This document shows, in pieces, positions 11,341 through 31,437 of a stretch of DNA of 64,000 nucleotides (the first letter of the stretch is position 1; each line of letters begins with the position of its first letter). A model generated the notes under the pieces. It ran no database searches. It was given only the letters and a program-made list of their open reading frames with translations, and was not told the origin of the DNA. Source of the DNA: a virus (Duplodnaviria > Caudoviricetes). Both the position numbers and the translations under genes were made by a program. The DNA lies in the IMG/VR virus record IMGVR_UViG_3300028532_000002, positions 17,052-81,051 of that record; one strand, written 5' to 3'.

Positions 11341-11342
11341 AC

Positions 11343-11678: not shown

Positions 11679-11797
11679 CGCCCACAACTGCTAGCGACCT
11701 GCAACTTTCGCTTGCTCTTGCAGTTGGCGCCCGAGCGGGACGGGCACCCTGTCGGTCCCGCACGGTAGGACAGGAACCTCACCACCCGAGGAGCCCC

Positions 11798-12720: not shown

Positions 12721-12897
12721 CTACTGGACGCGCACCGCCGCGAGGAGAGCGGTCCACTCGGGGGCCGGGGCCTCCAGGTGGCCCAGTTCCCGGTTCTGGG
12801 TGTCCCGCATCAGCGTCTCGAAGCCCTCGCTGACCTCGACGCAGTTCCCCGATCCGCTGCTGTAGCTGGCTTTGTGCCACGTGCGGGTTTCATTCAT
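12721..12897 (-). CDS. DUF397 domain protein
   Basis: WHKASYSSGSGNCVEV...RDTQNRELGHL...EW signature. Confidence 0.92.
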   Translation of the reverse strand: MNETRTWHKASYSSGSGNCVEVSEGFETLMRDTQNRELGHLEAPAPEWTALLAAVRVQ

Positions 12898-13709
12898 CGT
12901 CCACCGACCTCTCGCAACATCGTGAGTGTCGCGGCTTCCGAAAGGGCCTCTCCTTGGAGAAGACCAAACGTGGTCGCGCACTCCTGGTATCGATCCATAT
13001 CGCTGATGACCGTCTCCCCGGTCATATACTCCGCCGATGCCACGGGGGGCTCGTCCGCGAAGGTGTACAGCCTGAAAGCGCCACCACTGCCGTAGTGACG
13101 CCCCGTGCTCCGGGGGATGATCTGAACCCTGACCTTACCGCTGTCCATGTCGTCGAGGACCCTCTGCACCTGATTTGTCAGCAGCTCAGGGCCGCGCGCT
13201 CCGACCTGCTGGTGGAGGACCGCTTCGCCGAGGAGGCACAGGACCAGGGGGCGGGGTTCTTCGTCCAGGAGACGCTGTCGCGTCATGCGGTTGTGCACGA
13301 GCTGATCGACGGCGGATGAGGGCATGCCGGGGAAGATGTCCTCGAAGACCGCGCGGGCGTAGTCCTCGGTCTGGAGCAGGCCGGGGATGACGAGTGGCTG
13401 GAAGTCGCGGATCTGGGTGGCCGCGGTCTCCAGCTCGGGCAGTTCCGCGAATCGGAACGGGGTCTGCACCTGGCGGCGGACCTTGGCCCATTCGTCGGCC
13501 AGGCGACCTCCGGCCTTGAGGTGCTCGTCGAGCTGGTTGATGTACTTCTCGTCGACCTTGCGGGATCCCGTCTCCCACGAGGAGTAGTAGCTGCCCACGA
13601 CGTCGAGTTTCTTGGCGACGTCGATTTGCCGCAGGTTCAGGTCCTCGCGGTGCTTCTTCATCTGCTTCCCGAAGTGCTTCCATGCCGGGTCGGTCGGGCG
13701 CTTCGACAT
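12894..13709 (-). CDS. XRE HTH + DUF5753 regulator (WhiJ/Scr1-like)
   Basis: N-terminal HTH, FQPLVIPGLLQTEDYARAVF, LGEAVLHQQVG; coupled to DUF397. Confidence 0.92.
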   Translation of the reverse strand: MSKRPTDPAWKHFGKQMKKHREDLNLRQIDVAKKLDVVGSYYSSWETGSRKVDEKYINQLDEHLKAGGRLADEWAKVRRQVQTPFRFAELPELETAATQIRDFQPLVIPGLLQTEDYARAVFEDIFPGMPSSAVDQLVHNRMTRQRLLDEEPRPLVLCLLGEAVLHQQVGARGPELLTNQVQRVLDDMDSGKVRVQIIPRSTGRHYGSGGAFRLYTFADEPPVASAEYMTGETVISDMDRYQECATTFGLLQGEALSEAATLTMLREVGGR

Positions 13710-17874: not shown

Positions 17875-18414
17875 CTACGTACCCCTCACTGCCTTCTCAG
17901 CGGACCACAGGTAGTAGCCCAGCACGTCGCCCTCGTGGGCCTCGACGAGGCCGGGCCCCAGCTCCGCGCGCATCTGCGGCCCGGTCCAGTGGTCCCGGTG
18001 GATCTCGAACCAGTTCCCGTTGACGTCCGCCTGGTCGTGATGGGCCAACGGGACGCTGACGAGGACGTGGTGCGCCCAGTCCCGCATGCGCGCGAGCACC
18101 GCCCGCGCCTCCGGCTGCGTCATGTGCTCCAGCACGTCCGCGAGGATGACCAGGTCCGGTTCGCGCAGGATGGTGTACGGGTCCAGGTGGCGGATGTCCG
18201 CGACGACGACGTGGTCGTAGGCCTCGAACAGCTGGAACTGCTGGATGTAGGGGGCCCACGCCTCCACCCCCACCCACCGGCACCCCGGGGTGGCGTCGCG
18301 GGCCAGCTGCACGTAGGTGCCCTCGCCGGGTCCCACGTCCACCACAGAGGCGGGCGCGAGAGACCTGATGATCTCCCGCGCCCACCCCTTTCCCTCACGG
18401 TCGGAGGTCGGCAC
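17875..18414 (-). CDS. Class I SAM-dependent methyltransferase
   Basis: VVDVGPGEGTY motif I, GVEAW, DLVILADVLEHM. Confidence 0.9.
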   Translation of the reverse strand: MPTSDREGKGWAREIIRSLAPASVVDVGPGEGTYVQLARDATPGCRWVGVEAWAPYIQQFQLFEAYDHVVVADIRHLDPYTILREPDLVILADVLEHMTQPEARAVLARMRDWAHHVLVSVPLAHHDQADVNGNWFEIHRDHWTGPQMRAELGPGLVEAHEGDVLGYYLWSAEKAVRGT

Positions 18415-18765
18415 CTACGCCGCCACCGGCCGGACGGGCGTGGGCGACACCTCGTGGCGGAGCACCAGGGTCATGATCGCGACGATCGCGCCGTTGATCG
18501 CGACCACCAGCTCGGGGCTCACCCCGATCCCGTAGTGGGTCAGCAGCGGGGCGAGCGTCAGTATGACGGCAGTGAACGCCGCGGGGGCGATGGGGCGGAC
18601 GTAGACCGCCTGCACCGCACCCAGGACCGCGCCGAGCGCCCCGACGATCAGCGGCACCGCGGCGTCGGTCAGGTACGGCAGGCCGACCGCGACGCCGACG
18701 AGGAGGACGGCCTGGACGGCGTTCAGGATGACGACCGGCTCGCGGCCGAACACGGGAGACTTCAT
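18415..18765 (-). CDS. Holin
   Basis: IFGREP-type N-terminus (VFGREPVVIL), four TM helices, in the lysis cassette. Confidence 0.75.
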   Translation of the reverse strand: MKSPVFGREPVVILNAVQAVLLVGVAVGLPYLTDAAVPLIVGALGAVLGAVQAVYVRPIAPAAFTAVILTLAPLLTHYGIGVSPELVVAINGAIVAIMTLVLRHEVSPTPVRPVAA

Positions 18766-18950
18766 GGGCTGGATTCCTGTTCTCGGGCTTCTCGCCCGTC
18801 AAGACTGCTGTGAGTGATGACCCAGCCGACCGATCCGTCTTTGCGTTTGATCGGTCGGGTGGTGGGGCCGCACATGCAGTCGGCCTCGTTGGTGTCGGTG
18901 TCGTGCTCGACCAGGTCATTGTCGGGGTAGACGTGCACGGTGTCGGACAC
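18762..18950 (-). CDS. Small hypothetical protein in lysis cassette
   Basis: VHVYPDNDLVEHDT...CMCGP...HSSLDGRE; ATGA overlap with holin. Confidence 0.7.
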   Translation of the reverse strand: MSDTVHVYPDNDLVEHDTDTNEADCMCGPTTRPIKRKDGSVGWVITHSSLDGREAREQESSP

Positions 18951-18956
18951 GGTGGC

Positions 18957-19943
18957 CTACTTCGGCCAGTAGAAGACGTCCGCGGTGGCCGACACGACCT
19001 TCGCGGCAGCGTCCCCGTACTGGACGACGCGGACCCGGACCCGGCGGCCCTTGGCGAGGTTGCCCTTCCAGCTGTAGGTGAAGTGGCCGTTGCCGCCGGC
19101 GTGCACGGGGCTGTCGATGGGCCGGTTGCGGGCGTACACCCACGACCCCTTGCCGTCCTGTTCGTACTCGGTGGCGCGCAGCTGCACCTCCGCACCGGCG
19201 GACAGGTCGGCGATGGTCACCCCCACGGAGAAGTCGTAGAGGGCGCCGTCCTTCTCGTTGACGCCCACCAGCGAGTACAGGCTGCCGGTGGAGGTGCCGC
19301 CGTGGTCGGCGTCGACCACGGTCTCGAACTCCAGGGAGGTCCACTCGCCGGGGTTGAGGGTCTGGGTCCGGTCCTTCTCGAACCGGCGGTGTCGGGGCAT
19401 GCCGTCTTCTCCCTTGTCGTTATCGGTGAAGCTCGTGGGCGGCTTCGCGAACGTGCCGTCCTCGACGAGCCGGTAGGCCCTGGCGCCGGGGCACGAGGTG
19501 GAGATGAAGTCGCGGTGGCCGAGCACCTTCCCGGAGATGGAGGTGTCCGGTTCCATCAGCCACTGGCGCAGCTGGCGGACGGCGTTGATCTGCTCCGGGG
19601 TGATCTCGTCGTTCGGGCCCGTGGCCAGGGTCACCGAGTAGTGCGAGGTGTTGCCGCCGGGCTGGGCGGCCTGCGCCCGGTACAGGCCGCGCCCCTCCAG
19701 GACGTAGCCGTGGCTGCACGCCATCCAGCTGTAGCCGATGTCCGCCCAGCCGCGGGACGGCCCGGTATGGAAGCGACGGGTGTTGCGCCAGTACGTGATG
19801 CAGGCCGAGTGATCCTTGTCGGCGAGGCCCTGGTCGGCGCTGTCGTAGTGGATGACCAGACCCGATCGGGGGTTGGCCCTCTCGGCGGGCGTCGACCCCC
19901 AGCCGAGGTCGGCGCGAGACACGTACTTCGTGGGTATGGGCAT
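18957..19943 (-). CDS. Endolysin, amidase_2 (PGRP-like) N-acetylmuramoyl-L-alanine amidase
   Basis: GLVIHY, WADIGYSW, EGRG, AQPGGN, GHRDFISTSCPG. Confidence 0.92.
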   Translation of the reverse strand: MPIPTKYVSRADLGWGSTPAERANPRSGLVIHYDSADQGLADKDHSACITYWRNTRRFHTGPSRGWADIGYSWMACSHGYVLEGRGLYRAQAAQPGGNTSHYSVTLATGPNDEITPEQINAVRQLRQWLMEPDTSISGKVLGHRDFISTSCPGARAYRLVEDGTFAKPPTSFTDNDKGEDGMPRHRRFEKDRTQTLNPGEWTSLEFETVVDADHGGTSTGSLYSLVGVNEKDGALYDFSVGVTIADLSAGAEVQLRATEYEQDGKGSWVYARNRPIDSPVHAGGNGHFTYSWKGNLAKGRRVRVRVVQYGDAAAKVVSATADVFYWPK

Positions 19944-20977: not shown

Positions 20978-21475
20978 ATGGACATCTCCCTCTCCCCCCT
21001 CGACGTCGGCGACCTCTCCGGCGTTGCTGCTCTGCTTGTCGCGATCGTCGCTGGCGTCATCGCTGGCCTGGCCAAACGGGAAGCGCGCCGCGCCGCCGAC
21101 GCGGCCGAGGACTCCGCAACGTCCTCGAAGAGGTCAGCGGACGCGGCCGAGGAGCAGACGAACCTCGCGCGCGCCCAGGACGACCGCTACGACCCGATGT
21201 GGGAACTGAGCATGCTGCCCGCAGAGGGCCTCGGCGCCATGAGGCTGGCGGTGACCAACCGAACGGGAGAGACCGCCTACGGAGCGACGGTCTCAGGCGA
21301 GGGGGTCGGCAGCAGCTCCCCTGCCGATGTTCTCGATGGCTCGCCCGTGGAGTTCGACTTCAAGCCGCCCCGGGGTCGCCTCGAAGGTTGTGAGGTGGAA
21401 GTTCGGTGGCGGCGACCGGAGTACCGCGGATCGACGGAACAGGTGTGGCTCGGGGGTCTCTCCTCATTGCTGTAG
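20978..21475 (+). CDS. Membrane-anchored accessory (moron-like) protein
   Basis: N-terminal TM; opposite strand to neighbours; own terminator. Confidence 0.7.
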   Translation: MDISLSPLDVGDLSGVAALLVAIVAGVIAGLAKREARRAADAAEDSATSSKRSADAAEEQTNLARAQDDRYDPMWELSMLPAEGLGAMRLAVTNRTGETAYGATVSGEGVGSSSPADVLDGSPVEFDFKPPRGRLEGCEVEVRWRRPEYRGSTEQVWLGGLSSLL

Positions 21476-21479: not shown

Positions 21480-21520
21480 AACACGAAGGCCCGCACCACA
21501 CGGTGCGGGCCTTCGTTGTT
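21480..21520. terminator. Bidirectional terminator
   Basis: CGAAGGCCCGCACC-ACAC-GGTGCGGGCCTTCG. Confidence 0.8.
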
Positions 21521-21527
21521 TCCAGGG

Positions 21528-21800
21528 TCAGCGGAGGTCCCAGGGCGGCGCCCCGGCGCCCTTGACCTCCACGTAGTCGTCACCGGCCGCGAAGGACACG
21601 GGGATGGCCCGCCCCTCCCCTTCGTCGGTGCGCAGGGTGACCATGTTGCGGCGGAACACGACCGCGAGGTCCTCCTCGTCCAGGTGGAGTTGGCCGCCCC
21701 ACTCCTTCAGGGGGCCGCCGGCGCTCGTGGCAAGGACGGCGTGGGCGGAGGCTGAGCCCCCGTCGTGCACGACCTCGACCGGGCCTTCGTAGCTGCTCAT
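21528..21800 (-). CDS. DUF4873-like small protein
   Basis: YEGPVEV...WGGQL...GAGAPPW pattern recalled for DUF4873. Confidence 0.55.
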   Translation of the reverse strand: MSSYEGPVEVVHDGGSASAHAVLATSAGGPLKEWGGQLHLDEEDLAVVFRRNMVTLRTDEGEGRAIPVSFAAGDDYVEVKGAGAPPWDLR

Positions 21801-22144
21801 GTCTTCTCCTGTGTGGTCTTGCGGGGCCGGTTCGTGCGCTGGAGGCCGTAGGCCATCCCGCACGCTCCGAACAGGGACACCAGCGAGACCACGACCGCAG
21901 GGGCGATCCACCACCCACCCATGACGGCCATCCACGCGCCCAGGGCGCCGAAGATCCCCATCAGGCCTGCGCCCAGGGTGATGATGGTCGGGTCCCGGGA
22001 CGGTTCGGCCGCGGGCGCCTCGTTGCTCGGCCGGTCGTCGATTTGGGCGTGGGTGACCTCGATGCCGGCGTCGTGCAGTGCGTCGACGGCCCGTCGGCGG
22101 GTGTTCTCGTCGGCGTTGGCGACCGCCAGTCGCAGGGTGCTCAT
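21797..22144 (-). CDS. Membrane protein (two C-terminal TMs)
   Basis: ATGA overlaps at both ends. Confidence 0.65.
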   Translation of the reverse strand: MSTLRLAVANADENTRRRAVDALHDAGIEVTHAQIDDRPSNEAPAAEPSRDPTIITLGAGLMGIFGALGAWMAVMGGWWIAPAVVVSLVSLFGACGMAYGLQRTNRPRKTTQEKT

Positions 22145-22491
22145 GACTCCTCCTGCTGAGCCCGGGCGAGTTGGGCGCGCAGGTCGGCGACCTCGCGGGC
22201 CCACTCCACGACAGTGTGCTCCTTCAGGTGCGCCTCCAGGACACGCTCGGTGGTCGCCGCGGTTCGCCGGTGCACGTCTGCGGCCAGCTGCGCCAGGGGC
22301 ACGCTTCCGAACCCCGGTACGACGGAGAGGTCCGCGGGCAGGGGCTCCTCGGTGTGCAACCAGGTGCAGGCCGAGATCGGGCAGTGCCTGACCACGGTCG
22401 GACCGGTGAGGACGCCGCCGCGCCGGAACGCCTCCACGTTGCCGGCCTCCTGCGCCTCGCGTCTGCCGGCCTTCGGGGCGCAAGCGTTCAC
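22141..22491 (-). CDS. Hypothetical protein with CxxxxC-x2-H motif
   Basis: HCPISACTWLH; coupled to the RHH gene. Confidence 0.55.
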   Translation of the reverse strand: MNACAPKAGRREAQEAGNVEAFRRGGVLTGPTVVRHCPISACTWLHTEEPLPADLSVVPGFGSVPLAQLAADVHRRTAATTERVLEAHLKEHTVVEWAREVADLRAQLARAQQEES

Positions 22492-23075
22492 TGCTGGACC
22501 CAGGCGTCGACCTTGCCGTACTCGCGCAGGTCGTCGATCAGATCCGCAGCGCCCTCGACTCCGGCTGCGGCCTGGCCCTCCAGGAAGGGGATCAGGTCCT
22601 TGTCGAGGGTGAGTATCGAGCCGACGACGCCGTCCGGCGCGATGCGCTGGATGAGGGTGTGGAGGAGTTGCTGCGGGATGGTGACCCGAACGCTCCGAGC
22701 TCCTGCTGTGTCCTCGATGTCGAGGACCCGCAGGAGGTCGCGGGCCGCAGTGATGGCCAAGTCCGCGCGGGCGTTGTCGCGGAAGCCGCCCCCCGTGTAC
22801 TGCTCGGTGAGGAGTTCGACGACCTCCCAGGGATCGACCTGCGGGGCGCCCTCGGAGAGGGGGTGCCCGTAGATCTCGACGCGCTCCTGGAGGACGTTGG
22901 TCAGGGTGATCTTTTTGGCGCCCGCGGGCAGGGCCTCGGTCTCCGCTTCAGCGCGGGCGAGGGCGGGGGTCCAGATCTTGTCGGTGATGCGGACGTTGCG
23001 CTTGGGGGTGGGCCCGTCGGGGCTGGGTGTGCGAGGCATGCGGCCAGTCTCGCATGTGGGGGTACGGCTCGTCAT
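22488..23075 (-). CDS. Ribbon-helix-helix-like DNA-binding protein, candidate island regulator
   Basis: GGAGGG RBS before ATG 23075; TPKRNVRITDKIWTPALARAE...TLTNVLQERVEIY resembles actinophage RHH proteins. Confidence 0.65.
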   Translation of the reverse strand: MTSRTPTCETGRMPRTPSPDGPTPKRNVRITDKIWTPALARAEAETEALPAGAKKITLTNVLQERVEIYGHPLSEGAPQVDPWEVVELLTEQYTGGGFRDNARADLAITAARDLLRVLDIEDTAGARSVRVTIPQQLLHTLIQRIAPDGVVGSILTLDKDLIPFLEGQAAAGVEGAADLIDDLREYGKVDAWVQQ

Positions 23076-23098
23076 TTTTGTCCCTCCATGTGCTGTGT

Positions 23099-23153
23099 CT
23101 GTCCCTACGGGGGATTGAACCTGTCCCCCCATCTGACTATACTGGGGGGACAG
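23099..23153 (+). promoter_or_regulatory. Promoter/operator cassette P1
   Basis: TTGAAC(23115)-N17-TATACT(23138); CTGTCCCCCCA(23121)...TGGGGGGACAG(23143). Confidence 0.85.
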
Positions 23154-23177
23154 AAACAGTCAAGGGGAGGAACCACC

Positions 23178-23510
23178 ATGGGGATCCAGTTCTGCGCCGC
23201 CGCCGACCGTCCGGCCGCCCCCGTGGTGGACGTGAACGCCTTCCACGGGTCGCGCCTGCTGCGCCTCCTGGGCCTGCCCGTCGAGCCGGTCGGCGACGTT
23301 CCGGCCGCCGAGCTGCGCGAGCGCGCCACGCTCGCCATCGCCATGTGCGAGGCGGGCGAGGCGCACGCCGACGGCGAGGCCGGGGCCGCCCTGGAGTCGG
23401 CCGCGCGCGGCGCGGACCCCTCGCACCTGCGCATGCGCCTCGTGGAGCTGCTCGGCGTCGCCGAGTGGGTCCGCGAGCACCGCCCCGGCGGCCCCGTCAC
23501 CTGGGGCTGA
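23178..23510 (+). CDS. Island gene P1-1, hypothetical
   Basis: GGAGG RBS; first gene after P1. Confidence 0.7.
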   Translation: MGIQFCAAADRPAAPVVDVNAFHGSRLLRLLGLPVEPVGDVPAAELRERATLAIAMCEAGEAHADGEAGAALESAARGADPSHLRMRLVELLGVAEWVREHRPGGPVTWG

Positions 23511-23574
23511 CCCCTCCCCCACCACACACCCCACCGGGGCGGCCCCACCGGGCCGCCCCAGGAAGGACACTCCC

Positions 23575-24108
23575 ATGCACGACATCTCCGACCGCCTGCT
23601 GAACCGCCTGGTCGAGGCCGTCAAGGAGGCCGAGCGCACCGGCGTCTACGCCCACCTGCCCGCGAAGACCCCGGCCGCGTCCCGTGAGGCGCTCCTGCGC
23701 CGCGAGCTCGTCTACCGCAACCACGTCGAAGGGCGGTGGGAGCTGTCGCTGGAGGCCGTCGGCATGGCAGAGGAGGAGATCGAGCGCCGCGCCCACGACG
23801 CGGCCGAGGAGGCTGCCCGGCCCGCCCTCCAGGCCGCCGCCGACCGGGTGTTCCTCGCCCAGTGGGCGGGCCTGCCCGGGGAAGAGGAGTTCCGCGCGGT
23901 CGCCCCCGCGCGGGGCGTGCGCACCCACGAGGCCCGGTGTGCCGACAGGGCTCTGCGGCCGACGTGCGCCGAGCCGGGCCGGAGCCTGCGGACGAACTTC
24001 CTCCCCACCGACGCCGACATCACCTGCCCCAAGTGCCGCAAGCGACGGGCGCTACGCGCCGAGAGCCGCGCCGAGCTGGCCGCCGCCCGCGCCCGGCTCG
24101 CCGTCTGA
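23575..24108 (+). CDS. Island gene P1-2, hypothetical with zinc motif
   Basis: AGGAAGGA RBS; HEARC...PTC...ITCPKC. Confidence 0.7.
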   Translation: MHDISDRLLNRLVEAVKEAERTGVYAHLPAKTPAASREALLRRELVYRNHVEGRWELSLEAVGMAEEEIERRAHDAAEEAARPALQAAADRVFLAQWAGLPGEEEFRAVAPARGVRTHEARCADRALRPTCAEPGRSLRTNFLPTDADITCPKCRKRRALRAESRAELAAARARLAV

Positions 24109-24161
24109 CCCCACGAACCGTCGGGGCGGCCGACCGGCCGCCCCGCAGAAAGGACACCGCC

Positions 24162-24713
24162 ATGACCAGCACCCCCTCCTGGACCCCGCCCCGCGCCATG
24201 GTCGACCTGCTGGAAGAGGCCACCCGATTCGGCCGCAACTCCTCGGTGACCCACGCCACCGATTCCGGCGGCGCACCCTTCGTGACCGTGCGTCTGTCGT
24301 GGCAGCGCGAGCGCCAGGACTACCCGGTCGAAATCCGCGCGACGTGGCACACCCGCACCACGGGCACGTACCGACTGAAGTCCGCCATCGCCCGGTGGCC
24401 GGGGCAGGACTGGGTGGACGTGAGCCTCACCCGCGCACAGGCGCTCGTGGCCGACGGCCAGGAGCTTCAGCCCGCCCCCGAGGAGGCCCCCGACCCGGCG
24501 CAGGAGTGGGCGCGGGTGTGGGGTAACCCCTACCTGGCCGGGGACGTAGGGGGGCGACTGACGTGCGAGGAGACGGAGGTGGTCGCCGACCTCCTCGCGA
24601 CCCTGGGAATGCCGGACCGGGGGTTGGCGTGGCTGGTGGAGCACGCCCAGGATGATGACGAGGGCGACAGTCACTGGGACCTGCGCCAGCAGTACCCGCT
24701 TGGGTGGATCTAA
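24162..24713 (+). CDS. Island gene P1-3, two-domain hypothetical
   Basis: AAAGGA RBS; C-terminal LTCEETEVVADLL...EHAQDDDEGDSH. Confidence 0.7.
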   Translation: MTSTPSWTPPRAMVDLLEEATRFGRNSSVTHATDSGGAPFVTVRLSWQRERQDYPVEIRATWHTRTTGTYRLKSAIARWPGQDWVDVSLTRAQALVADGQELQPAPEEAPDPAQEWARVWGNPYLAGDVGGRLTCEETEVVADLLATLGMPDRGLAWLVEHAQDDDEGDSHWDLRQQYPLGWI

Positions 24714-24714
24714 C

Positions 24715-24770
24715 CTGTCCCCCCATTTGAGTTGCAACTGTCCCCCCATTTGTATATAGTGGGGGGACAG
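24715..24770 (+). promoter_or_regulatory. Promoter/operator cassette P2
   Basis: Extra half-site at 24715; TTGCAA(24732)-N17-TATAGT(24755); inverted repeat 24738/24760. Confidence 0.85.
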
Positions 24771-24805
24771 CAAGCGGGGGAGCCCGCCGAGACCGGGGAG
24801 ACACC

Positions 24806-25132
24806 ATGGCCGAGAAGTACGAGTTCAGCGGGCGCACCATGACCGTCCACGAGTACCGCGCCCTGGACACCCGCCGCCCCTACGCGGTCGTCGACATCGA
24901 CGGCGTCCCCGTCTGGCTCACCCTGGACGCGCACGGCCTGCTCTCCACCTCCGTCCGCCACCCCGAGGGCATCAACGCCGGGGCCGACGTCCTGTGGGAC
25001 CTGCGCGGCTCGGGCCTGGTCGACCTGGTCTGCCGGGGCACCTCGGCCGAGGCCGACGACACCGAGTCCTGGCTGGGCCCCGTCCCCGTCCGGCTGCGCC
25101 CGTTCACGTCCCGCGCCACCACCTGCCCGTAG
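24806..25132 (+). CDS. Island gene P2-1, hypothetical
   Basis: GGGGAG RBS; GC3-rich. Confidence 0.7.
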   Translation: MAEKYEFSGRTMTVHEYRALDTRRPYAVVDIDGVPVWLTLDAHGLLSTSVRHPEGINAGADVLWDLRGSGLVDLVCRGTSAEADDTESWLGPVPVRLRPFTSRATTCP

Positions 25133-25187
25133 CCGCCCCGCCCGCCCCCTCTCCGGGGGCGGGCCCCACCCCCACCGGGAGCACCCC

Positions 25188-25688
25188 ATGGCCACCGCCG
25201 TCCGCGCCACCCGCGCCGCCACCAGCCCCGTCGTCGGCCACTACGTCACCGTCACGGTCACCGACACCGACTGGGACACCGGGCAGGCCAGCGGGACCCG
25301 CACCCTCTACCGCGCCTACCTCGCGGACGGCACCCCGGCGGGGTCCCCGATCAGCTGGGGGAACGGACTCGCCCCCGACACGAACGCCTACCCGACCGAG
25401 GCCAAGGCGCGCGCCGGGATCCGCCGCGCCCACCGCCACCTCACCGAGATCCGCGCCGAGCTCGACACCCTCCGCGCCGAGGCCGCCGCCCGCGCCGAGG
25501 CCGTCATCTCCGTCGCCCCGGTGGCCGACGAGTCCGGCCGCGAGGTCGGCACCGTCCGCGAGCGCCGCGACGGCCGCTACCTGGCCGCCCTGCCCGCCGC
25601 CGACGGGAGCGGCTACCTGCCCGTCCAGGTGTGCGACACCCACACCGACGCCGAGGCCGCCGTCCACGCCCACCTGAACGGGAGCTGA
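25188..25688 (+). CDS. Island gene P2-2, hypothetical
   Basis: GGGAG RBS after a hairpin. Confidence 0.7.
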   Translation: MATAVRATRAATSPVVGHYVTVTVTDTDWDTGQASGTRTLYRAYLADGTPAGSPISWGNGLAPDTNAYPTEAKARAGIRRAHRHLTEIRAELDTLRAEAAARAEAVISVAPVADESGREVGTVRERRDGRYLAALPAADGSGYLPVQVCDTHTDAEAAVHAHLNGS

Positions 25689-25690
25689 CC

Positions 25691-26071
25691 ATGAACCCCA
25701 CGACCGCCCGCCGCCTCTCGCGCGGGCTGACCGGCGACGCGCGCGCCATCGCCCGCGCGGCCGAGCGCCTCCTGTCGCTCCGGCCGGACCGCCCCACCTC
25801 TCCGAGCCCGCACGCGCGCATGGCCGCCGCCCTGTACGCCCTACACGCCGCTCGCGCCGCCACCGAGGGCCCCGGGCCCACCTGCGAGCAGTGCCGCAAG
25901 GGCGTCGACCTCGACACCGGCCGGTGCGCCTGCCCCGGCCGGGCGTGGGGCCTGCCCGTGGTCGACGTCGTCCCTGACGCGGTCGGACTCCCCCGGTGGG
26001 AGGGCCGCCCCGAGCGGGCCCCGGCGCGGCTGGTCGCCGCCGGGTTGCGCCACGGCTACCACCTGTCCTGA
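25691..26071 (+). CDS. Island gene P2-3, hypothetical with CxxC...CxC
   Basis: ATG 2 nt after upstream stop; CEQCRKG...RCACPG. Confidence 0.6.
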   Translation: MNPTTARRLSRGLTGDARAIARAAERLLSLRPDRPTSPSPHARMAAALYALHAARAATEGPGPTCEQCRKGVDLDTGRCACPGRAWGLPVVDVVPDAVGLPRWEGRPERAPARLVAAGLRHGYHLS

Positions 26072-26116
26072 ACCCGCGGCCGGCGCCCGCCGACCGCCAT
26101 CTGAGAGGAACTCACC

Positions 26117-26404
26117 ATGCAGCAGCTTCCGATCCGCGTCCGCGCCAGCGTCGTGCAGGACGCCATCGACGCCCACCCGACCCCGGCGGCCGAGTGCGCG
26201 TGGGCCGAGACCCGGTTCGCCGTGGCCTCCAGGCCCTCCAGGAGGGCGGCCACCCGCGCCCCGCACCGGATGGCCCCGGGGTCGTTCAGCACGCCGCAGG
26301 GAATGCGCCACTCGGCGCTGTGCGCGGACTGCCCCTATCGGACGCCGCCGACGGTGACACCGGAGGCCATGGACGCACTGGTCGAGGCGCACGAGGCCGG
26401 ATAG
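26117..26404 (+). CDS. Island gene P2-4, hypothetical
   Basis: GAGGA RBS; LCADCPY. Confidence 0.6.
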   Translation: MQQLPIRVRASVVQDAIDAHPTPAAECAWAETRFAVASRPSRRAATRAPHRMAPGSFSTPQGMRHSALCADCPYRTPPTVTPEAMDALVEAHEAG

Positions 26405-26450
26405 TCGGCCTGATCTGCCTTTGACCTGCGGGGATACCCCCACCGCCAAA

Positions 26451-26506
26451 CTGTCCCCCCATTTATGTTGATACTGTCCCCCCACTGGGTTATAGTGGGG
26501 GGACAA
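26451..26506 (+). promoter_or_regulatory. Promoter/operator cassette P3
   Basis: Extra half-site at 26451; TTGATA(26468)-N17-TATAGT(26491); inverted repeat 26474/26496. Confidence 0.85.
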
Positions 26507-26527
26507 GAACGGATGAGGGAGACGGAC

Positions 26528-26914
26528 ATGGCGAGCACCACCAAGAACACCGAGACCAACACCCCGCGCTGCGCCCGCTGCGCCCGCGTGCTCACCAGCA
26601 CCACTTCCATCGCCCGTGGCATCGGCCCCGGCTGCGCGACCATCCTGCGCCGCGAGGCACGCGCCGAGTACCGCGCCCACCAGATCGAGTCCGCCCGCGA
26701 GCTCATCGCTGACGGCGGCATCGCCCACCTGCGCAGCGCGGTCTACCTCACCGTCTCCACCGACGGCACCCGCGTCCACCGCACCACCACCACCCACTGC
26801 ACCTGCGACGCCGGTATCCGCAACGGCCGCTGCTACCACTCCGCAGCGGTCCGCATCATCACCGCCCTGTCCCTGGCCCGCCCCGCCCGCCCCGCCCACA
26901 CCCTCGCCGCCTGA
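26528..26914 (+). CDS. DUF6011-like + SWIM-type zinc-finger protein
   Basis: CARCARVLT..SIARGIGPGC and HCTCDAGIRNGRCYHSAA. Confidence 0.75.
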   Translation: MASTTKNTETNTPRCARCARVLTSTTSIARGIGPGCATILRREARAEYRAHQIESARELIADGGIAHLRSAVYLTVSTDGTRVHRTTTTHCTCDAGIRNGRCYHSAAVRIITALSLARPARPAHTLAA

Positions 26915-26968
26915 GCCCGCCCCCGGCGGCCCCGCACACGGGGCCGCCACCCCGGATAGGAACCCCCG

Positions 26969-27274
26969 ATGACCGCCACCGCCCGCGAGATCGCCGTCCG
27001 CACCGCCACCGAGTTCGCCCGCATGGCCGAGGCATGGGAGGACGCCACCGACGCCGATGGCGACACCAGCCGCCGCCTGGCGACCCTCCTGCGCACCGGC
27101 ACCGCGTGGCCGACCGGCCCCCGGTCCGTGGCCGCCACCGTCACCGGGACCGACGCCGCCCTGTGGGGCTACACGGCCGGACAGGTCCTCGACGCCGCCG
27201 CCGACCTTGACGAGGTGTTCACCACCGGCCAGATCACCGAGACCGCCCCCGGTTCTTGGCACCTCACCTGGTAA
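26969..27274 (+). CDS. Island gene P3-2, hypothetical
   Basis: AGGA RBS after a hairpin. Confidence 0.65.
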   Translation: MTATAREIAVRTATEFARMAEAWEDATDADGDTSRRLATLLRTGTAWPTGPRSVAATVTGTDAALWGYTAGQVLDAAADLDEVFTTGQITETAPGSWHLTW

Positions 27275-27332
27275 CCGCCCGGGGGGGTCGCGCCCGTCCG
27301 CGACCTTCGCCCCCTCCCCGAAGGAGAGTTCG

Positions 27333-27716
27333 ATGCACCCCGCCAACACCACCGTGATCATCGTCCGCGCCACCAGAAACAAGCCGTTCGAGGTCGTGCG
27401 GCGCAACGGCCGGTTCCGTGTCCGCGACTCGCGCACCGGTCGGATGATGACCGGCCAGCTCCCCAAGGCAGACGCCGTACAGATGGCCAACTATCACAAC
27501 CGGCGCACGCCGGGCCCGTGTGTGGCCGCTGCCGGGGGTCATTCCGTGAGGCGGTCGCCGTCGGGGCGGTACTGGGAGGTTCTCGACCCTGACGACATTC
27601 CGATCAAGGAACTGGCCTCCCCGACCCGTAGGGAGGCACTGGCCAGGGTCGACGCGATGCTTGCCACGCGAGCCCTGACAGCTATTGAAACCACCGAGGA
27701 GATCCACCATGTCTGA
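27333..27716 (+). CDS. Island gene P3-3, basic hypothetical
   Basis: AAGGAG RBS. Confidence 0.6.
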   Translation: MHPANTTVIIVRATRNKPFEVVRRNGRFRVRDSRTGRMMTGQLPKADAVQMANYHNRRTPGPCVAAAGGHSVRRSPSGRYWEVLDPDDIPIKELASPTRREALARVDAMLATRALTAIETTEEIHHV

Positions 27717-28245
27717 CCGCACCGACCACGTTCTGAGCGCCATCGACCACGCCGTTTCCGACTGGGAGGTGGGCCCCGACGCCATGCGGTCGATGCCCGA
27801 CCTGCCGCCTGCCCCCGAGGTGGACGCGCACGCGCTGGCCACCGACGCGGCCGTGCGGGCACTGAGCGACGCCCTGGACCGGTCGGGCACCACCCGGGCC
27901 GGGCTGATCGAGGCCGGCCACCTCGTGGAGGCCCCGGCTGGCATGGCGGCAGAGGCCGGGTGGACGGTGCCCGTCGCCGTCACCCGGGCGCTGTGGCTGG
28001 ACATGGTCGAGTGGCCCGACTCCGAGGCGTGTCCGCAGGACGAGTCCGGGCGGTGGTGGGATGTGCTGTGGATGAGCGCGTTCGCGGCCCGCCGGAACCG
28101 GGCCCGAGGCGGGATGGTGCGCGCGGGACTGTTCCGGGTGCCGCGCGGCGGGATGGTGGCCGAGAAGGTGACGGTGGAGGTGTCGATCGGGCCGGGCGAC
28201 GACGGGGGTCCGGCGGTGACGCTGTCGCTTCCGCAGGAGGGGTGA
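27709..28245 (+). CDS. DUF6573-like protein
   Basis: QDESGRWWDVLWM...IGPGDDGGPAVTL recalled as DUF6573; GAGGAG RBS. Confidence 0.7.
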   Translation: MSDRTDHVLSAIDHAVSDWEVGPDAMRSMPDLPPAPEVDAHALATDAAVRALSDALDRSGTTRAGLIEAGHLVEAPAGMAAEAGWTVPVAVTRALWLDMVEWPDSEACPQDESGRWWDVLWMSAFAARRNRARGGMVRAGLFRVPRGGMVAEKVTVEVSIGPGDDGGPAVTLSLPQEG

Positions 28246-28259
28246 CCTGCCATCCAAAT

Positions 28260-28315
28260 CTGTCCCCCCACATGACTTGAAACTGTCCCCCCATCTATAT
28301 ATAGTGGGGGGACAA
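28260..28315 (+). promoter_or_regulatory. Promoter/operator cassette P4
   Basis: Extra half-site at 28260; TTGAAA(28277)-N17-TATAGT(28300); inverted repeat 28283/28305. Confidence 0.85.
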
Positions 28316-28345
28316 GAACGGATGAGGGGAAAGGAGGCGGCGCAC

Positions 28346-28531
28346 ATGCACCGCGAGGACTACCTCTACCTGGCCCCCGAGGCCGACGACGCCGAGGGCG
28401 AGTGCGTGTACGAGACCGGCGGCGACGACACCTGCGACGCCCCCGCGACCGACCTGTTCTGCGACGTCCACGACGACGCGATCAGCCCCGAGGACCGCGC
28501 CCTCTACGAGCGCCACCACCTCGCCGCATGA
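28346..28531 (+). CDS. 61-aa very acidic Cys/His protein
   Basis: AAGGAGG RBS; 18 D/E versus 3 R; C-x9-C-x8-C-x2-H. Confidence 0.7.
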   Translation: MHREDYLYLAPEADDAEGECVYETGGDDTCDAPATDLFCDVHDDAISPEDRALYERHHLAA

Positions 28532-28614
28532 GAGCGGCCCGGCCGGGGCTCCACCCCCGGCCGGGCCTACGGACCCCCGACAGCGACCAGCGACCAGCCA
28601 CCAGGAGAACCACG

Positions 28615-29106
28615 ATGAACGCTACCGCTACCGCCGCCGCCCTCGCGGCCCTGCTCGACTCCCTCGCCGCCGACACCCCGGCGCACCTGTCCACGCTGAT
28701 CGAGGACACCGACAGCTACGGCACCGGAGACGACGACGGCGACACCGCCGTAGGCAACTACCTCGCCCTGCGCCTGCTCATAGGGGGCGTCCCCGCGCAG
28801 GTGCTGGTGCAGTACCACACCGTGACGGCCGTGGACCTGCACACCCGAGCGGTCCTCGCCCGGGGCGAGATGACCGGGGGGCTCGCGGAGCTGCGCGACC
28901 TGATCGAGGAGGAGGACACCGAGTTCGCCCACCTGCACCAGGCGGGAGCGGTGGAGGCCTCCCGTGGTGGTGCGGCCGACCGCGCCGAGGAGGCCGCGAC
29001 CGGCCCGATCTGGGAGCGCGCGGACACCGACGACGCCGACTTCTTCGACCTGATCACCGGCATGTGGGACGGGGTGAACGCCCCGGCACTGACCGCCGTC
29101 GCCTGA
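28615..29106 (+). CDS. Acidic hypothetical protein
   Basis: AGGAG RBS; about 29 D/E, about 7 R, no K. Confidence 0.7.
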   Translation: MNATATAAALAALLDSLAADTPAHLSTLIEDTDSYGTGDDDGDTAVGNYLALRLLIGGVPAQVLVQYHTVTAVDLHTRAVLARGEMTGGLAELRDLIEEEDTEFAHLHQAGAVEASRGGAADRAEEAATGPIWERADTDDADFFDLITGMWDGVNAPALTAVA

Positions 29107-29176
29107 CCCGACCAGGGCCGCCCCGCCCGTCCTGCGGGGCGGCCCCTCCCCTCCCACGCCCACACGAGGAGACGCC

Positions 29177-29443
29177 GTGACCACCCACAAGAACTACTCC
29201 CTCAAAGGTTTCACGCCCCAGATCGAGTGCAGCACCGACCCCATCGGCGTCAACAGCTCGGACGACCTCAACCGAGTGGACTGCGTCGAGTGCCTGCGCG
29301 CCGTTGCCAAGAGCACCACCGCCAAGGTCGCCGAGCTGGACAAGAAGTACGCCCGGGCCCGCTACGACCGCAACCGCTACTGGGAGCAGCGCAACACCGC
29401 CCGCGAGCGCGCGAACAAGCTCGCCGCCGAGTCCGCCGAGTAG
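29177..29443 (+). CDS. Island gene P4-3, CxxC plus coiled coil
   Basis: GAGGAG RBS. Confidence 0.7.
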   Translation: MTTHKNYSLKGFTPQIECSTDPIGVNSSDDLNRVDCVECLRAVAKSTTAKVAELDKKYARARYDRNRYWEQRNTARERANKLAAESAE

Positions 29444-29504
29444 CCACCCGGCCGGCCGCCCCCGACCGCCACCGGGGGCGGCCCCCACACCCGAAGGAGA
29501 CACC

Positions 29505-29684
29505 GTGGTCACCTATCAGGACCTGCCCCCTGCCGACCGCGCCATCCTCGCGCTCGCCAGCCACGAGGTCACCTCGGCGCTGATCGACGGCGACAAGGCA
29601 CGCGCGGCCAGCTGCGAAGACTTCTTTCGGTGGGCGTGCGGAACCTACGGGATCGACCCCGACGAGACCTTGACGCACCTGTGA
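29505..29684 (+). CDS. Island gene P4-4, small hypothetical
   Basis: AAGGAG RBS before GTG 29505. Confidence 0.6.
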   Translation: MVTYQDLPPADRAILALASHEVTSALIDGDKARAASCEDFFRWACGTYGIDPDETLTHL

Positions 29685-29745
29685 CTGAACCGCCCGCCCC
29701 GGGCCCGCCCCGGGGCGGGCCCCACAACCCGAACGGGGAGACCCC

Positions 29746-30261
29746 ATGACCAGCATCGACCACCACCTGACCGAGGCCGAGAAGCTGACCGCCCGCGGCT
29801 TCGAGGAGAACGACGGGACGTGGGCGCTGGTGTACCAGCAGGCTGCACAGACGCACGCCACCATCGCCCTGACCATGGCCACGGCCGCCAAGACGAACCA
29901 GGAGCTGGCTGCCGAACTGGAGACGGTCCGCGCCGAACTGGAGGCCGAGCGACGCAAAAACCGGGACGCCGCCCTGTCGATGCGCAACCGCGCCGCGGCC
30001 ACCGCCGTCACCGCCGTGTGGCAGATGCCCGCCCACGGGTGGGCGGAGCTGAACAAGGCCATGCGCTCGGTGTACGCCCTGCCGCTGGACACCGACCGCA
30101 CGCCCGGCGCCCCCACCATCCACGACGACGCCGTGCACGGGCGAAGCAAGCTCGCCGCCACCCACGGGGCGACCACGTGTGGCCTGCCCGCTGGCGACGT
30201 GGGGCGCACGAGCGACAACCCTGACGGCGTCACGTGCCCGTGGTGCCGCGACCTGCTGTAG
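29746..30261 (+). CDS. Island gene P4-5, coiled coil plus zinc motif
   Basis: GGGGAG RBS; H...TTCG...VTCPWC. Confidence 0.7.
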   Translation: MTSIDHHLTEAEKLTARGFEENDGTWALVYQQAAQTHATIALTMATAAKTNQELAAELETVRAELEAERRKNRDAALSMRNRAAATAVTAVWQMPAHGWAELNKAMRSVYALPLDTDRTPGAPTIHDDAVHGRSKLAATHGATTCGLPAGDVGRTSDNPDGVTCPWCRDLL

Positions 30262-30317
30262 CCCAACCCCCCGCCCCGCGCCCGCGGGGCGGGCCCCTCT
30301 TCCTGTTGGAGAACACC

Positions 30318-30770
30318 ATGAACAGCACCTCCACCCTCCGCCTCCTCGCCGACCTCTCCGAGCGCGCCCACAGCGCCCTTCTGGGAGGCCAGATGGAGTG
30401 GTCCGTGACCATCGCCGGGGCGGCCGTCGGCACCCTCTTCGACCGGGACAGCCGCCCCGACTCGCAGCGCGCACGCCTCCAGCAGTGGGGTGCCCTCATG
30501 GGGCAGGACCTGGACATCACCGAGACCCAGGAGGGCGACACCACCCACCTGGAAGCACGCCTTCAGTACGACGACGTGCCGGTAACGCTGCGCGCCGTGT
30601 GCCCGCCCTACCGGCCCCGCCTGTGCGGGCACGTCTCGGATGAGGGGTTGTCCTGCCAGATGCGCCCCGGCCACACCAGCTGGGTGACGAGCTACGCGAT
30701 GCACCTGCACCGCGCCGAGGACGGCACCACCACGCGCTGGGAGTACAACAGCGCCGACCTGAACCGATAG
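30318..30770 (+). CDS. Island gene P4-6, hypothetical with Cys/His motif
   Basis: GGAG RBS; LCGH...SCQMRPGH...H. Confidence 0.65.
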   Translation: MNSTSTLRLLADLSERAHSALLGGQMEWSVTIAGAAVGTLFDRDSRPDSQRARLQQWGALMGQDLDITETQEGDTTHLEARLQYDDVPVTLRAVCPPYRPRLCGHVSDEGLSCQMRPGHTSWVTSYAMHLHRAEDGTTTRWEYNSADLNR

Positions 30771-30788
30771 GACTGACCCCGCACACGA

Positions 30789-30834
30789 CGAAGCCCCGAA
30801 CTCTTTCCTGTTGGGAAAGAGCTCGGGGCGTTCG
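30789..30834. terminator. Terminator closing the island
   Basis: CGAAGCCCCGAACTCTTTCC / GGAAAGAGCTCGGGGCGTTCG long stem between convergent genes. Confidence 0.75.
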
Positions 30835-30840
30835 CGCGCG

Positions 30841-31437
30841 CTACGCGACGGGGACGACGGCGACCTCCGGGGCGCCCTCCGCGGCCAGGCCAAGCGCGGC
30901 CAGCTCGGTGCCCTCCGGCAGGTCGAACACCATCGTGTACTCGCTGGTGTTGCCGGGGTTGGTCTCCTCGGAGAACGAGCAAACCTCCGCGTGGGGAGCG
31001 AACTCCGTGCCGTCCGCGGCGTAGGCGTGCACGCCCGACCAGGAGTCGGCAGGCGGGTAGGCCGGCGCGGTGCTGGTGTTCTCCGCGCTGATGGTGACCA
31101 CGTAGAACTCGCCACTGGCGGTGTACTGGCTGCCGCAGTCGTCGTCGTTGTAGGTGGCCGCGGTGCCGATGTCGGTGACCGCGTAGTCGAACACGCCGTC
31201 GGTCGGCTCACCCGACGGCGGTGCGGTCGGGGCGGGCGGCGCCTCTTCCTCGTACTCCTCCATCGCCTCCATGTCCTCGGGGACGCTGGCGTCTTCGATG
31301 TCGGCGCCGATGTCCTCGAACGCGCTGTTCAGGGAGGCGCGGATATAGGCCTGGTTGGAGATCCATCCGAGGCCGAAGCCGATCACGACCGCGACGGCGG
31401 CGCTGGCCATGGTGACGATCCACCCGGTTCTGGTCAC
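30841..31437 (-). CDS. Membrane-anchored acidic protein, DUF4352-like Ig fold
   Basis: N-terminal TM; YVVTISAENTS, ETNPGNTSEYTMVFDLPEG. Confidence 0.7.
   Translation of the reverse strand: MTRTGWIVTMASAAVAVVIGFGLGWISNQAYIRASLNSAFEDIGADIEDASVPEDMEAMEEYEEEAPPAPTAPPSGEPTDGVFDYAVTDIGTAATYNDDDCGSQYTASGEFYVVTISAENTSTAPAYPPADSWSGVHAYAADGTEFAPHAEVCSFSEETNPGNTSEYTMVFDLPEGTELAALGLAAEGAPEVAVVPVA

Follow-up and report, generated by a model that had tools for sequence, protein, structure and literature searches.

Six operator-embedded promoters and a candidate repressor suggest an early regulon in an actinomycete siphophage

We analysed 64,000 nucleotides (hereafter the window) at positions 17052-81051 of the 81,051-bp IMG/VR virus record IMGVR_UViG_3300028532_000002, in which four promoter cassettes precede an island of 17 small genes. 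The cassettes belong to a set of six co-regulated promoters, in all of which the same site overlaps the promoter core far beyond chance. These are probably the immediate-early promoters of a temperate siphophage, shut by a phage repressor whose most likely gene, here called P0001, lies next to the first cassette. The sequence anatomy of the cassettes, their non-randomness, their distribution over the genome and the content of the co-regulated genes are direct observations. The first-pass annotation, made by a model from the letters of the window, had described a four-cassette regulon; the co-regulated promoters before small genes stood, but the cassettes turned out to number six, to be phage-wide and to precede DnaC-like, C5-methylase, SSB and gp5.9-like genes as well.

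Promoters interleaved with operator boxes

The exact inverted repeat CTGTCCCCCCA-N11-TGGGGGGACA occurs four times in the island (23121, 24738, 26474, and 28283) and in none of 100 dinucleotide-preserving shuffles. The two arms of each copy flank the -10 box of a plus-strand promoter of the form TTGNNN-N17-TATA(C/G)T (23115, 24732, 26468, and 28277), and the distances from cassette to cassette are 1617, 1736, and 1809 bp, exactly as in the first-pass annotation. A scan of 22400-31000 for sigma70 sites (a TTGACA-like -35 and a TATAAT-like -10 hexamer 16-18 nt apart) returned these four promoters and one minus-strand site, i.e., five against 0.2 expected, in line with the description of near-consensus promoters with an embedded operator. 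The half-site earlier noticed upstream of P2-P4 was also present; it is a third box in direct orientation, 23 bp upstream of the L box (matched at 24716, 26452, and 28261), and P3 and P4 have GACAAGAACGGATGAGGG downstream in common, as had been described.

The 11-bp box has the consensus (C/T)TGTCCCCCC(A/G). Counted from a transcription start placed ~7 nt after the -10 hexamer, the U box is a direct copy at about -52 to -42, the L box is a direct copy abutting the -35 hexamer at about -29 to -19, and the R box, in inverted orientation, overlaps the final base of the -10 hexamer and spans the predicted start (about -7 to +4). The box centres lie 22-23 bp apart, which corresponds to about two helical turns, and the triplet covers roughly -52 to +4. 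Transcripts are predicted to start 6-8 nt past the -10 hexamer, near 23149-23151, 24766-24768, 26502-26504, and 28311-28313. The four cassettes are laid out as follows, each with the genes it is predicted to drive.

23099-23153, plus strand: cassette P1, for g1-g3; degenerate upstream box CTGTCCCTACG at 23099-23109; -35 TTGAAC at 23115-23120; L box CTGTCCCCCCA at 23121-23131; -10 TATACT at 23138-23143; inverted R box TGGGGGGACAG at 23143-23153
24715-24770, plus strand: cassette P2, for g4-g7; U box at 24715-24725; -35 TTGCAA at 24732-24737; L box at 24738-24748; -10 TATAGT at 24755-24760; R box at 24760-24770
26451-26506, plus strand: cassette P3, for g8-g11; U box at 26451-26461; -35 TTGATA at 26468-26473; L box at 26474-26484; -10 TATAGT at 26491-26496; R box at 26496-26506, final base A
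28260-28315, plus strand: cassette P4, for g12-g17; U box at 28260-28270; -35 TTGAAA at 28277-28282; L box at 28283-28293; -10 TATAGT at 28300-28305; R box at 28305-28315, final base A

The minus-strand site, P1', faces P1 within one and the same inverted repeat, matches 10 of 12 consensus positions, holds the R box inside its spacer and is directed at the P0001 gene. As P1' lies inside the operator, this gene would be controlled by whatever binds there. P0001 and the three small genes behind it form a four-gene operon.

23136-23163, minus strand: reverse promoter P1'; -35 TTGACT at 23163-23158, 16-nt spacer, -10 TATAGT at 23141-23136
22488-23075, minus strand: candidate repressor gene P0001, 195 aa; ribosome-binding site GGAGGG, ATG at 23075
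22141-22437, 21797-22144, and 21528-21800, minus strand: three small genes co-directional with P0001, function unassigned
21480-21525: bidirectional hairpin ending the P1' operon (-48.9 kcal/mol for an 80-nt segment)

Across this hairpin, the operon converges with a plus-strand gene (20978-21475) that encodes a hydrophobic N-terminus and stands among minus-strand genes. We considered whether P1' might read on into the lysis genes; the strong convergent terminator and the opposing gene rule this out.

A pattern search of the whole record yielded two further cassettes, both on the minus strand and beyond the window, with the promoters TTGAAA or TTGTAA-N17-TATAGT.

Record 10898-10952, minus strand: cassette P5, three boxes and promoter; operon of IstB/DnaC-like, HTH_17, C5 DNA methylase, DUF6248, and SSB genes
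Record 842-896, minus strand: cassette P6, three boxes and promoter; heads one gene and then, across the circle junction, a block at window 63998-54342

The ends of the record overlap, the first 132 nt being repeated at its end (window 63868-64000) with 98.5% identity, which suggests a circular genome of ~80.9 kb or a short terminal redundancy. Since the record closes into a circle, P6 would read into a block that contains a gp5.9-like gene; the 106-aa product of this gene (62116-62436, minus strand) matches in its C-terminal part the Pfam family Phage_T7_Gp5_9, a RecBCD inhibitor (E 1.4e-12).

With a 17-nt spacer throughout, the six cassettes agree with the sigma70 consensus at 9-10 of 12 positions. 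Across the two stretches scanned with the tool, seven sigma70 sites were found against 0.2 expected in each, and the same rule applied to both strands of the 81 kb gave eight sites, namely the six cassettes, P1' and one at window 3685, seven of the eight being operator-linked. The sole operator-free site (TCGTCA-N18-TATAGT, 3685-3714, plus strand) sits where the integrase gene meets the TraB-type module, and it is directed into that module. Exact 11-mer boxes number 13 in the genome (0.13 expected), and the five boxes with one mismatch all fall within cassettes; overall, 17 of the 18 boxes with up to one mismatch are in the six promoters, at positions fixed relative to the -35 and -10 hexamers. 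Boxes with two mismatches are at chance level (44 observed and 61 expected). The lone exact box outside the cassettes (63087-63097, minus strand), inside a coding region of the minus-strand block downstream of P6, may be a chance occurrence or a single roadblock-type site.

In the alignment of the six cassettes, the U box, TTG, the L box, TATAnT, the R box and a short AAC past the third box are conserved and the flanks are unrelated. This restriction of conservation to boxes and promoter elements points to protein-binding sites over a promoter rather than to a duplicated gene segment. Extra flanking sequence is shared between pairs of cassettes (downstream in P3/P4 and P5/P6, upstream in P3/P5).

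The first-pass annotation had not recognised the operator, and we found it neither in the literature searched, where no paper has the box word in a relevant context, nor in the other genome, virus and metagenome records searched. The operator scan gave 4 matches in IMG/VR and 39 in GTDB genomes, every one an isolated GC hairpin or an unrelated repeat; with the promoter embedded, there were none in genomes and 8 unrelated ones in metagenomes. Two unrelated IMG/VR contigs (56-57% GC; 7238-7410 and 1155-1440) carry dense (C)TGTCCCCCC / GGGGGGACA(G) words in both orientations, which may be iteron-like or an operator cluster for a protein of similar specificity. Five metagenome contigs (40-50% GC) contain one ~100-bp repeat with GGGACAGGGGGGACG, the inverted pair TGTCCCCCCC and GGGGGGACA, and a further TGTCCCCCCC; it resembles a repeat dispersed through the genome of some unrelated organism. 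A portal-based search for relatives gave at best 48% identity, and blastn of the island against phages and plasmids gave only short DUF6011 and DUF6573 matches.

The DUF6011 protein of the island (g8) led to the plasmid phiM2 of Streptomonospora litoralis (NZ_CP036456.1), a distantly related 90-kb circular element with phage genes that has 16 proteins in common with the phage, including capsid (47% identity), portal (44%), RusA (52%), and the DUF6011 protein (52%). It carries ten cassettes, each of them TTG(C/A)TA-N17-TATGAT with a conserved AGATATAA behind it. The words (A/C)TATCT beside the -35 hexamer and AGATAT past the -10 hexamer form an inverted repeat that brackets the -10 hexamer at an arm spacing of ~29 bp. 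Seven of the ten punctuate a 14-kb array of small genes (49278-63518, reverse complement) whose contents include an ArdC-family protein, an orphan N6 methylase and the DUF6011 homologue; the others are at 10889 and 77218/77238. One pair of cassettes stands face to face, and a divergent Myb/SANT-like DNA-binding gene adjoins the first cassette. The operator word and arm spacing differ from those of the phage, no third box was seen in phiM2, and tblastn found no P0001 homologue there. The same architecture with a different operator word and a different regulator is what diverging repressor/operator specificities would look like.

A ribbon-helix-helix candidate for the repressor

P0001 is the only DNA-binding candidate of the phage with strong boxes in its own promoter, and its gene is divergent from P1. 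Three parts are predicted for the protein: a ribbon-helix-helix (RHH)-like N-terminus at ~24-70, a helical dimer domain at 82-117 and, at the C-terminus, a small alpha/beta domain. Only 8 homologues were found among 1.84 billion representative proteins, in singleton metagenome records and in Actinocorallia herbida (WP_148085817, two loci); the family shares the N-terminal core PKRNxRIxDxxWxPALxRAxxEG...Y with a strand-helix-helix pattern, and the N-terminal strand reads RNVRIT in P0001. Residues 19-49 match PHROG 6506 'Arc-like repressor' (E 3.9e-4), and single homologues have weak Pfam matches to Arc (E 0.068), NikA-like (E 0.11), and VapB antitoxin (E 0.22) families. The atlas neighbours of residues 15-75 come mostly from RHH families. 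Comparison by features (0.84-0.87) gave RHH_1, RHH_3, RHH_6, NikA-like, and MetJ, and comparison by structure (TM-score 0.58-0.68) gave Antitox_RHH, RHH_4, and RHH_1; being below 0.9, these neighbours are to be taken as leads only. In the AlphaFold monomer, an unpaired segment (26-31) precedes helices 32-47 and 58-70. The homodimer prediction for residues 18-125 scored 0.82 against 0.00 for the best of 3 controls, a mark reached by 20 of 30 proteins whose solved structure is a pair of one and the same chain and by 1 of 23 solved as single chains, counts that are rough here because our own alignment was used. Across the dimer runs, contact agreement was at least 95% and the predicted local distance difference test score (pLDDT) of the partner at least 86. 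The predicted interface is symmetric, with residues 23-32 of both chains, helix 1/helix 2' and helix 2/helix 2' (62:62 and 65:65) in contact. This would be the intertwined RHH geometry. Resemblance to RHH dimers already in the PDB may account for part of the high score. Taken together, the signals are individually weak but concordant, and they suggest that P0001 is RHH-like.

What we infer from this anatomy is the activity of the promoters, their repression and its timing, which protein represses them and any anti-defence role of the island. In a repressor-free cell, entered by infection or by DNA arriving otherwise, the host RNA polymerase would fire the six promoters and P1' together; being near-consensus for the host sigma70 factor (HrdB-type), they would need no phage factor. 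The burst would supply the replication, methylase and SSB proteins (P5), the gp5.9-like block (P6) and 17 small soluble orphan proteins (P1-P4). The accumulating repressor would then occupy the direct-direct-inverted triplet and occlude the -35/-10/start region, which could serve lysogenic immunity, an Arc-like early shut-off, or both. P0001 would be negatively autoregulated via P1' in the P1 operator. Because P1 alone lacks a good third box, the operator shared by P1 and P1' would be the weakest of the six, and the repressor would still be made while P2-P6 are held shut. The logic of a burst followed by self-silencing, proposed in the first-pass annotation, fits the anatomy, but the likely silencer is encoded outside the island (22488-23075), unlike in loci of anti-CRISPR genes with their associated autorepressors (Acr-Aca).

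A more far-reaching version is that P0001 belongs to an undescribed RHH family whose extra domains bridge three asymmetric C6-tract boxes two helical turns apart, envelop the promoter entirely and keep an entry regulon silent across the phage. Because the phage also has a TraB-type module for dsDNA transfer, the same burst of derepression would come after infection or after conjugative transfer into a repressor-free hypha, with the 17 orphans as new anti-defence or host-takeover factors for a dual lifestyle. We regard this version as improbable.

Several points weigh against P0001 as the repressor of the six promoters. Its RHH assignment draws on a number of signals that are each weak; P0001 itself has no significant Pfam match, Foldseek against the PDB gave nothing for the monomer at E <= 0.001 with its N-terminus barely sampled, and the best hit of an exhaustive aligner (Z 4.7) was on the C-terminal domain and not significant. 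Its profile had no match among PDB sequences either. Characterised RHH operators have sub-sites that adjoin or are ~11 bp apart, unlike the asymmetric 11-bp boxes with their C6 tract, which recur every 22-23 bp; bridging these boxes would require the extra domains of P0001 to oligomerise. If the operator of P1 and P1' is common to both, a maintenance repressor would leave P1 partly open in lysogens. Degenerate boxes had appeared to tile the P0001 ribosome-binding site (23057, 23078, and 23100) in helical phase with P1, but genome-wide, boxes with two mismatches are no more frequent than chance predicts, and this tiling was not counted as evidence. No close relative with the same operator was found in the collections searched. 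A word-based search for relatives of P0001 found P0001 alone, tblastn against phages and plasmids found nothing, and locus searches in viral and metagenome contigs with P0002, P0003, P0004, and P0012 found nothing. Two JGI records, P0003 (a P0001 homologue, 40%) and P0012 (a homologue of the island protein g11, 64%), each come from a 75,893-bp contig, probably from a closer relative of the phage.

The phage also encodes other DNA-binding proteins, namely a protein with a LexA-type DNA-binding domain (DBD), an XRE/DUF5753 protein, an HTH_17 protein, a PadR-like fragment and a WhiB-domain protein. One of these or a host factor could bind the same regulon while P0001 has another role, which we consider unlikely. 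The domains in question are present at significant E-values, whereas the RHH assignment of P0001 is statistically insecure. The XRE gene lies in a low-GC patch of its own with non-coding flanks, as an immunity gene might, and the outer bases of the inverted repeat read CTGT...ACAG, resembling the half-sites that E. coli LexA recognises with its winged helix. However, CTGT-N25-ACAG is far from the N8 spacing of LexA, and the LexA-DBD protein is encoded inside an operon and has no S24 module. In the genome census, none of these genes has a box with up to two mismatches near its start. A simple helix-turn-helix (HTH) dimer would read the inverted half-sites but leave the third, direct box at two-turn spacing unexplained. 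The switch-like topology, i.e., a divergent gene with its promoter in the operator, is found only at P0001 and recurs beside the first cassette of phiM2. For the LexA-DBD protein we also considered a role as an SOS-cleavable immunity repressor, which was rejected for lack of the S24 autocleavage module.

Island genes and their genomic setting

The 17 genes of the island are on the plus strand in blocks of 3, 4, 4, and 6, each with a GC content at third codon positions (GC3) of 0.88-1.0 and a ribosome-binding site by GC3-based calling and inspection. The block sizes agree with those given in the first-pass annotation, as do the single terminator that closes the island and its orientation, opposite to the flanking late and lysis genes. 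The idea that the island had been inserted gained no support; its GC content and coding-strand skew are like those of the rest of the phage.

23178-23510, 23575-24108, and 24162-24713, plus strand: g1-g3, unassigned; the C-terminus of g3 matches phrog_1178, function unknown
24806-25132, 25188-25688, 25691-26071, and 26117-26404, plus strand: g4-g7, no family match
26528-26914, plus strand: g8, DUF6011 (E 2.7e-11), 52% identical to the phiM2 protein
26969-27274 and 27333-27716, plus strand: g9 and g10, no family match
27709-28245, plus strand: g11, DUF6573 (E 3.6e-12)
28346-28531, 28615-29106, 29177-29443, 29505-29684, 29746-30261, and 30318-30770, plus strand: g12-g17, no family match
30785-30830: GC-rich bidirectional hairpin terminator that closes the island and also ends the late (tail) operon converging on it (-37 and -47 kcal/mol on the two strands; z -4.5 and -7.5)

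Only g8, g11 and the C-terminus of g3 matched families in Pfam or PHROGs, none of known function, and no island protein matched a named anti-defence family in these collections. DUF6573 and DUF6011 are unmentioned in the literature searched. The g11 model (pLDDT 85) had no Foldseek match at E <= 0.001 in the PDB and a viral library, and the exhaustive aligner gave a best Z of 4.2, with resemblances to CdiA/RelE/ParE-type and 'polyvalent protein' structures too weak to interpret. By eye, the C-terminus of g8 shows a C-x-C ... C-x-H arrangement (Cys91, Cys93, Cys102, and His104), a SWIM-like zinc-finger pattern. All 17 proteins are soluble; six are strongly acidic, among them g12, g13, and g15 (isoelectric points 4.1-4.4), and five have CxxC pairs. 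We found no mutual paralogues and no transmembrane segments among them, and paralogy, secretion or membrane location was rejected on these grounds. The anti-defence arsenal proposed in the first-pass annotation has no direct support; the backing for an early takeover or counter-defence role of the island is circumstantial, namely co-regulation with gp5.9-like, methylase and replication genes and the company that the phiM2 homologue keeps.

Each island gap of at least 45 nt (23510-30320) holds a different 10-13-bp GC hairpin (-18 to -35 kcal/mol) just before the next ribosome-binding site. These hairpins probably attenuate transcription as partial terminators or stabilise the transcripts, which would explain a fresh promoter every 1.6-1.8 kb.

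Such hairpins also bear on whether the cassette repeat acts as a nucleic-acid structure or recombination seam, with no dedicated repressor. A precedent exists in the PeSLs of T4-like phages, composite promoter-terminator motifs in variable regions of mostly homologue-free genes that serve as points of genetic exchange (PMC2839356, PMC4122927). By analogy, the hairpin formed by the L and R boxes would end or process read-through transcripts, the promoter would restart transcription, and ~55 bp of identity would allow gene blocks to be swapped between phages. Five of the six cassettes follow a co-directional gene, and read-through RNA would hold a G/C stem of 11-13 bp, in keeping with the strong hairpin in every other island gap of at least 45 nt. 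The island genes are orphans, as in PeSL variable regions, and the extra flanks shared pairwise by cassettes suggest spread by duplication or recombination. However, a hairpin needs neither the third direct box nor identical arms in six copies, and no two of the other island hairpins are alike. The inverted repeat is complete at P1 too, although no co-directional gene precedes it there, and the loop always carries the -10 box at a fixed distance from the -35 hexamer. We therefore rate the structural alternative as improbable; a structural role would in any case be compatible with repression and need not replace it.

The boxes might also be activator sites, at about -47 and around the core, with the cassettes serving middle rather than immediate-early genes. 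A box centred near -47, as found here, occupies a classic activator position. The rest of the phage has no consensus promoters, so that phage-encoded transcription factors must exist, and a WhiB-domain protein is encoded upstream of P5; the WhiB family works with the principal sigma factor. Against this, the hexamers, 17 nt apart as is optimal, agree with the consensus at 9-10 of 12 positions and should need no help, one box covers the end of the -10 hexamer and the predicted start, where a bound protein blocks RNA polymerase, and P1' in the same site is a hallmark of negative autoregulation. Activation thus appears very improbable. Least probable of all, to the point of being hardly credible, is a locus of the Acr-Aca type, in which an autorepressor encoded in the island silences anti-defence operons: strong promoters with inverted-repeat operators do stand before small, often acidic proteins, the phiM2 DUF6011 homologue does share its array with an ArdC-family protein and an orphan methylase, and the same promoters do precede the gp5.9-like gene and the C5 methylase, but no HTH, RHH or other DNA-binding domain was detected in any of the 17 proteins (0/17), named anti-defence families are missing from their Pfam and PHROGs matches, the operator also stands before replication genes outside the island, and the gene with autoregulatory topology, P0001, is outside it too.

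The recognisable gene set of the record is that of a siphophage of a ~72% GC actinomycete, and the host would be a high-GC, Nocardiopsaceae-like actinomycete. Beyond the window, the record encodes YqaJ/RecT, RusA, a WhiB-domain protein, a DnaC/IstB-like protein, a C5 methylase, and SSB. Within the window, the following features surround the island and the P1' operon.

1970-3703: serine integrase, because of which the phage is taken to be temperate
about 4100-12100: TraB/FtsK-type module
12721-13709, minus strand: XRE gene with HTH_31 and DUF5753 (12894-13709) and a probable DUF397 partner just downstream
16273-19943: amidase endolysin, methyltransferase, and glycosyltransferase
30841-54800, minus strand: TerS-like, TerL, portal, capsid, tape measure, and tail genes
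57022-57657, minus strand: LexA-type winged-helix DBD (E 8.8e-16) protein, 211 aa, with a coiled-coil middle and a Cys-rich tail
61855-62043: PadR-like fragment

The GC content drops to 0.65 around the XRE/DUF5753 gene, and the flanks there are long and non-coding; with its probable DUF397 partner, the gene could form an imported regulatory or toxin-antitoxin-like pair, or it could be an immunity gene. The LexA-DBD protein is a possible transcription factor for late or middle genes.

Overall, the six promoters, the three-box operator and the candidate repressor would offer a compact gene switch for the poorly studied phages of actinomycetes, and if the pair works as proposed, it could serve as an orthogonal repressor/promoter tool for high-GC actinomycetes. 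The regulon would mark the genes expressed first, which makes the gp5.9-like gene, the C5 methylase and the 17 orphans obvious candidates for screens for counter-defence and host takeover. The parallel with phiM2 suggests that cassettes with lineage-specific operators are a general form of early-gene organisation in actinophages, a topic barely covered in the literature. The kind of system as such is unsurprising.

Comparison with known systems

Mnt and Arc of phage P22 are RHH proteins, and the P22 promoters Pant and Pmnt overlap. In the immI region, which is flanked by the late genes 16/sieA and 9, these two repressors control arc/ant (PMC11016777). By analogy, immI would be the closest functional counterpart of the P1/P1' switch: in both, a small gene for an RHH-type repressor, a candidate one here, is divergent from the promoter it controls, two promoters lie over one operator, the locus is sited among late genes (16/sieA-9 in P22, tail and lysis genes here), and a burst followed by shut-off takes place in P22 and is predicted here. 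Unlike immI, which has one promoter pair and an antirepressor target, the phage has six promoters that include those of replication genes, and its boxes are 11 bp long, asymmetric, two turns apart and arranged direct-direct-inverted. P0001 has 195 aa and two extra domains, and its sequence similarity is limited to the weak Arc-like PHROG match.

Among temperate actinophages, the stoperators of Cluster A mycobacteriophages (L5 gp71 type; PMC9283540, PMC6550527) and the Streptomyces phages R4, phiJoe, and phiScoe, whose repressor, encoded between the lysis and early regions, acts at 8 or more sites (PMC10276819), resemble the present system in that one repressor serves, or here would serve, many dispersed asymmetric sites, one of them over an early lytic promoter. 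Stoperators differ in being single 13-14-bp sites, mostly inside transcription units, where they block elongation, and in being bound by a monomeric two-domain HTH repressor; here, triplets are locked onto promoters and the candidate repressor is RHH-like. Single sites in transcription units outnumber promoter sites in stoperator systems, whereas the phage has one exact box outside the cassettes (63087, minus strand). For the temperate Streptomyces phage phiC31, Ingham, Wilson, Smith and co-workers (1993-1995) reportedly described the repressor c, conserved inverted repeats and a conserved family of early promoters. The likeness is in a conserved inverted repeat that is intergenic and at the repressor promoter, and in many near-identical early promoters; the phiC31 early promoters are said not to follow the sigma70 consensus, their operators to lie apart from the promoter core and the repressor isoforms to be large HTH proteins, whereas here operator and consensus promoter are interleaved base by base.

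With PeSLs, the cassettes share repeated units of early promoter and stem-loop between small, variable orphan genes (six repeats with an 11-13-bp stem in the phage), and such repeats could be recombination seams. The stem-loop of a PeSL precedes the promoter as a terminator, with no repressor implied, and PeSL phages are virulent and AT-rich; in the present case, the stem arms bracket the -10 hexamer, a third direct box is present and a candidate regulator gene is attached. Anti-CRISPR operons with Aca autorepressors, reportedly described by Stanley et al. (2019) and Birkholz et al. (2019), likewise have a strong promoter with inverted-repeat operators before small early-acting genes, with repression following a burst. 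Aca proteins are HTH proteins encoded in their own single operon, that is, autorepressors within the operon they control; here, no acr or aca homologues were detected, the island does not encode the candidate regulator, and the early programme as a whole would be under the one operator.

Among RHH repressors, Omega of the inc18 plasmids reads contiguous arrays of asymmetric heptads in direct and inverted orientation. CopG of pMV158 is also an RHH protein (PMC2724298). Dimers of both occlude the promoter core, and Omega has the same direct-direct-inverted pattern as found here, but its heptads are contiguous and CopG reads one 13-bp element, compared with 11-bp boxes 22-23 bp apart in the phage. 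Overall, a multi-site repressor regulon is a known kind of system and textbook phage biology, whereas the sequence and layout are new: the present system stands apart from those known in that three boxes are interleaved with a consensus promoter at two-turn spacing, in its C6-tract word and in the orphan RHH-like family.

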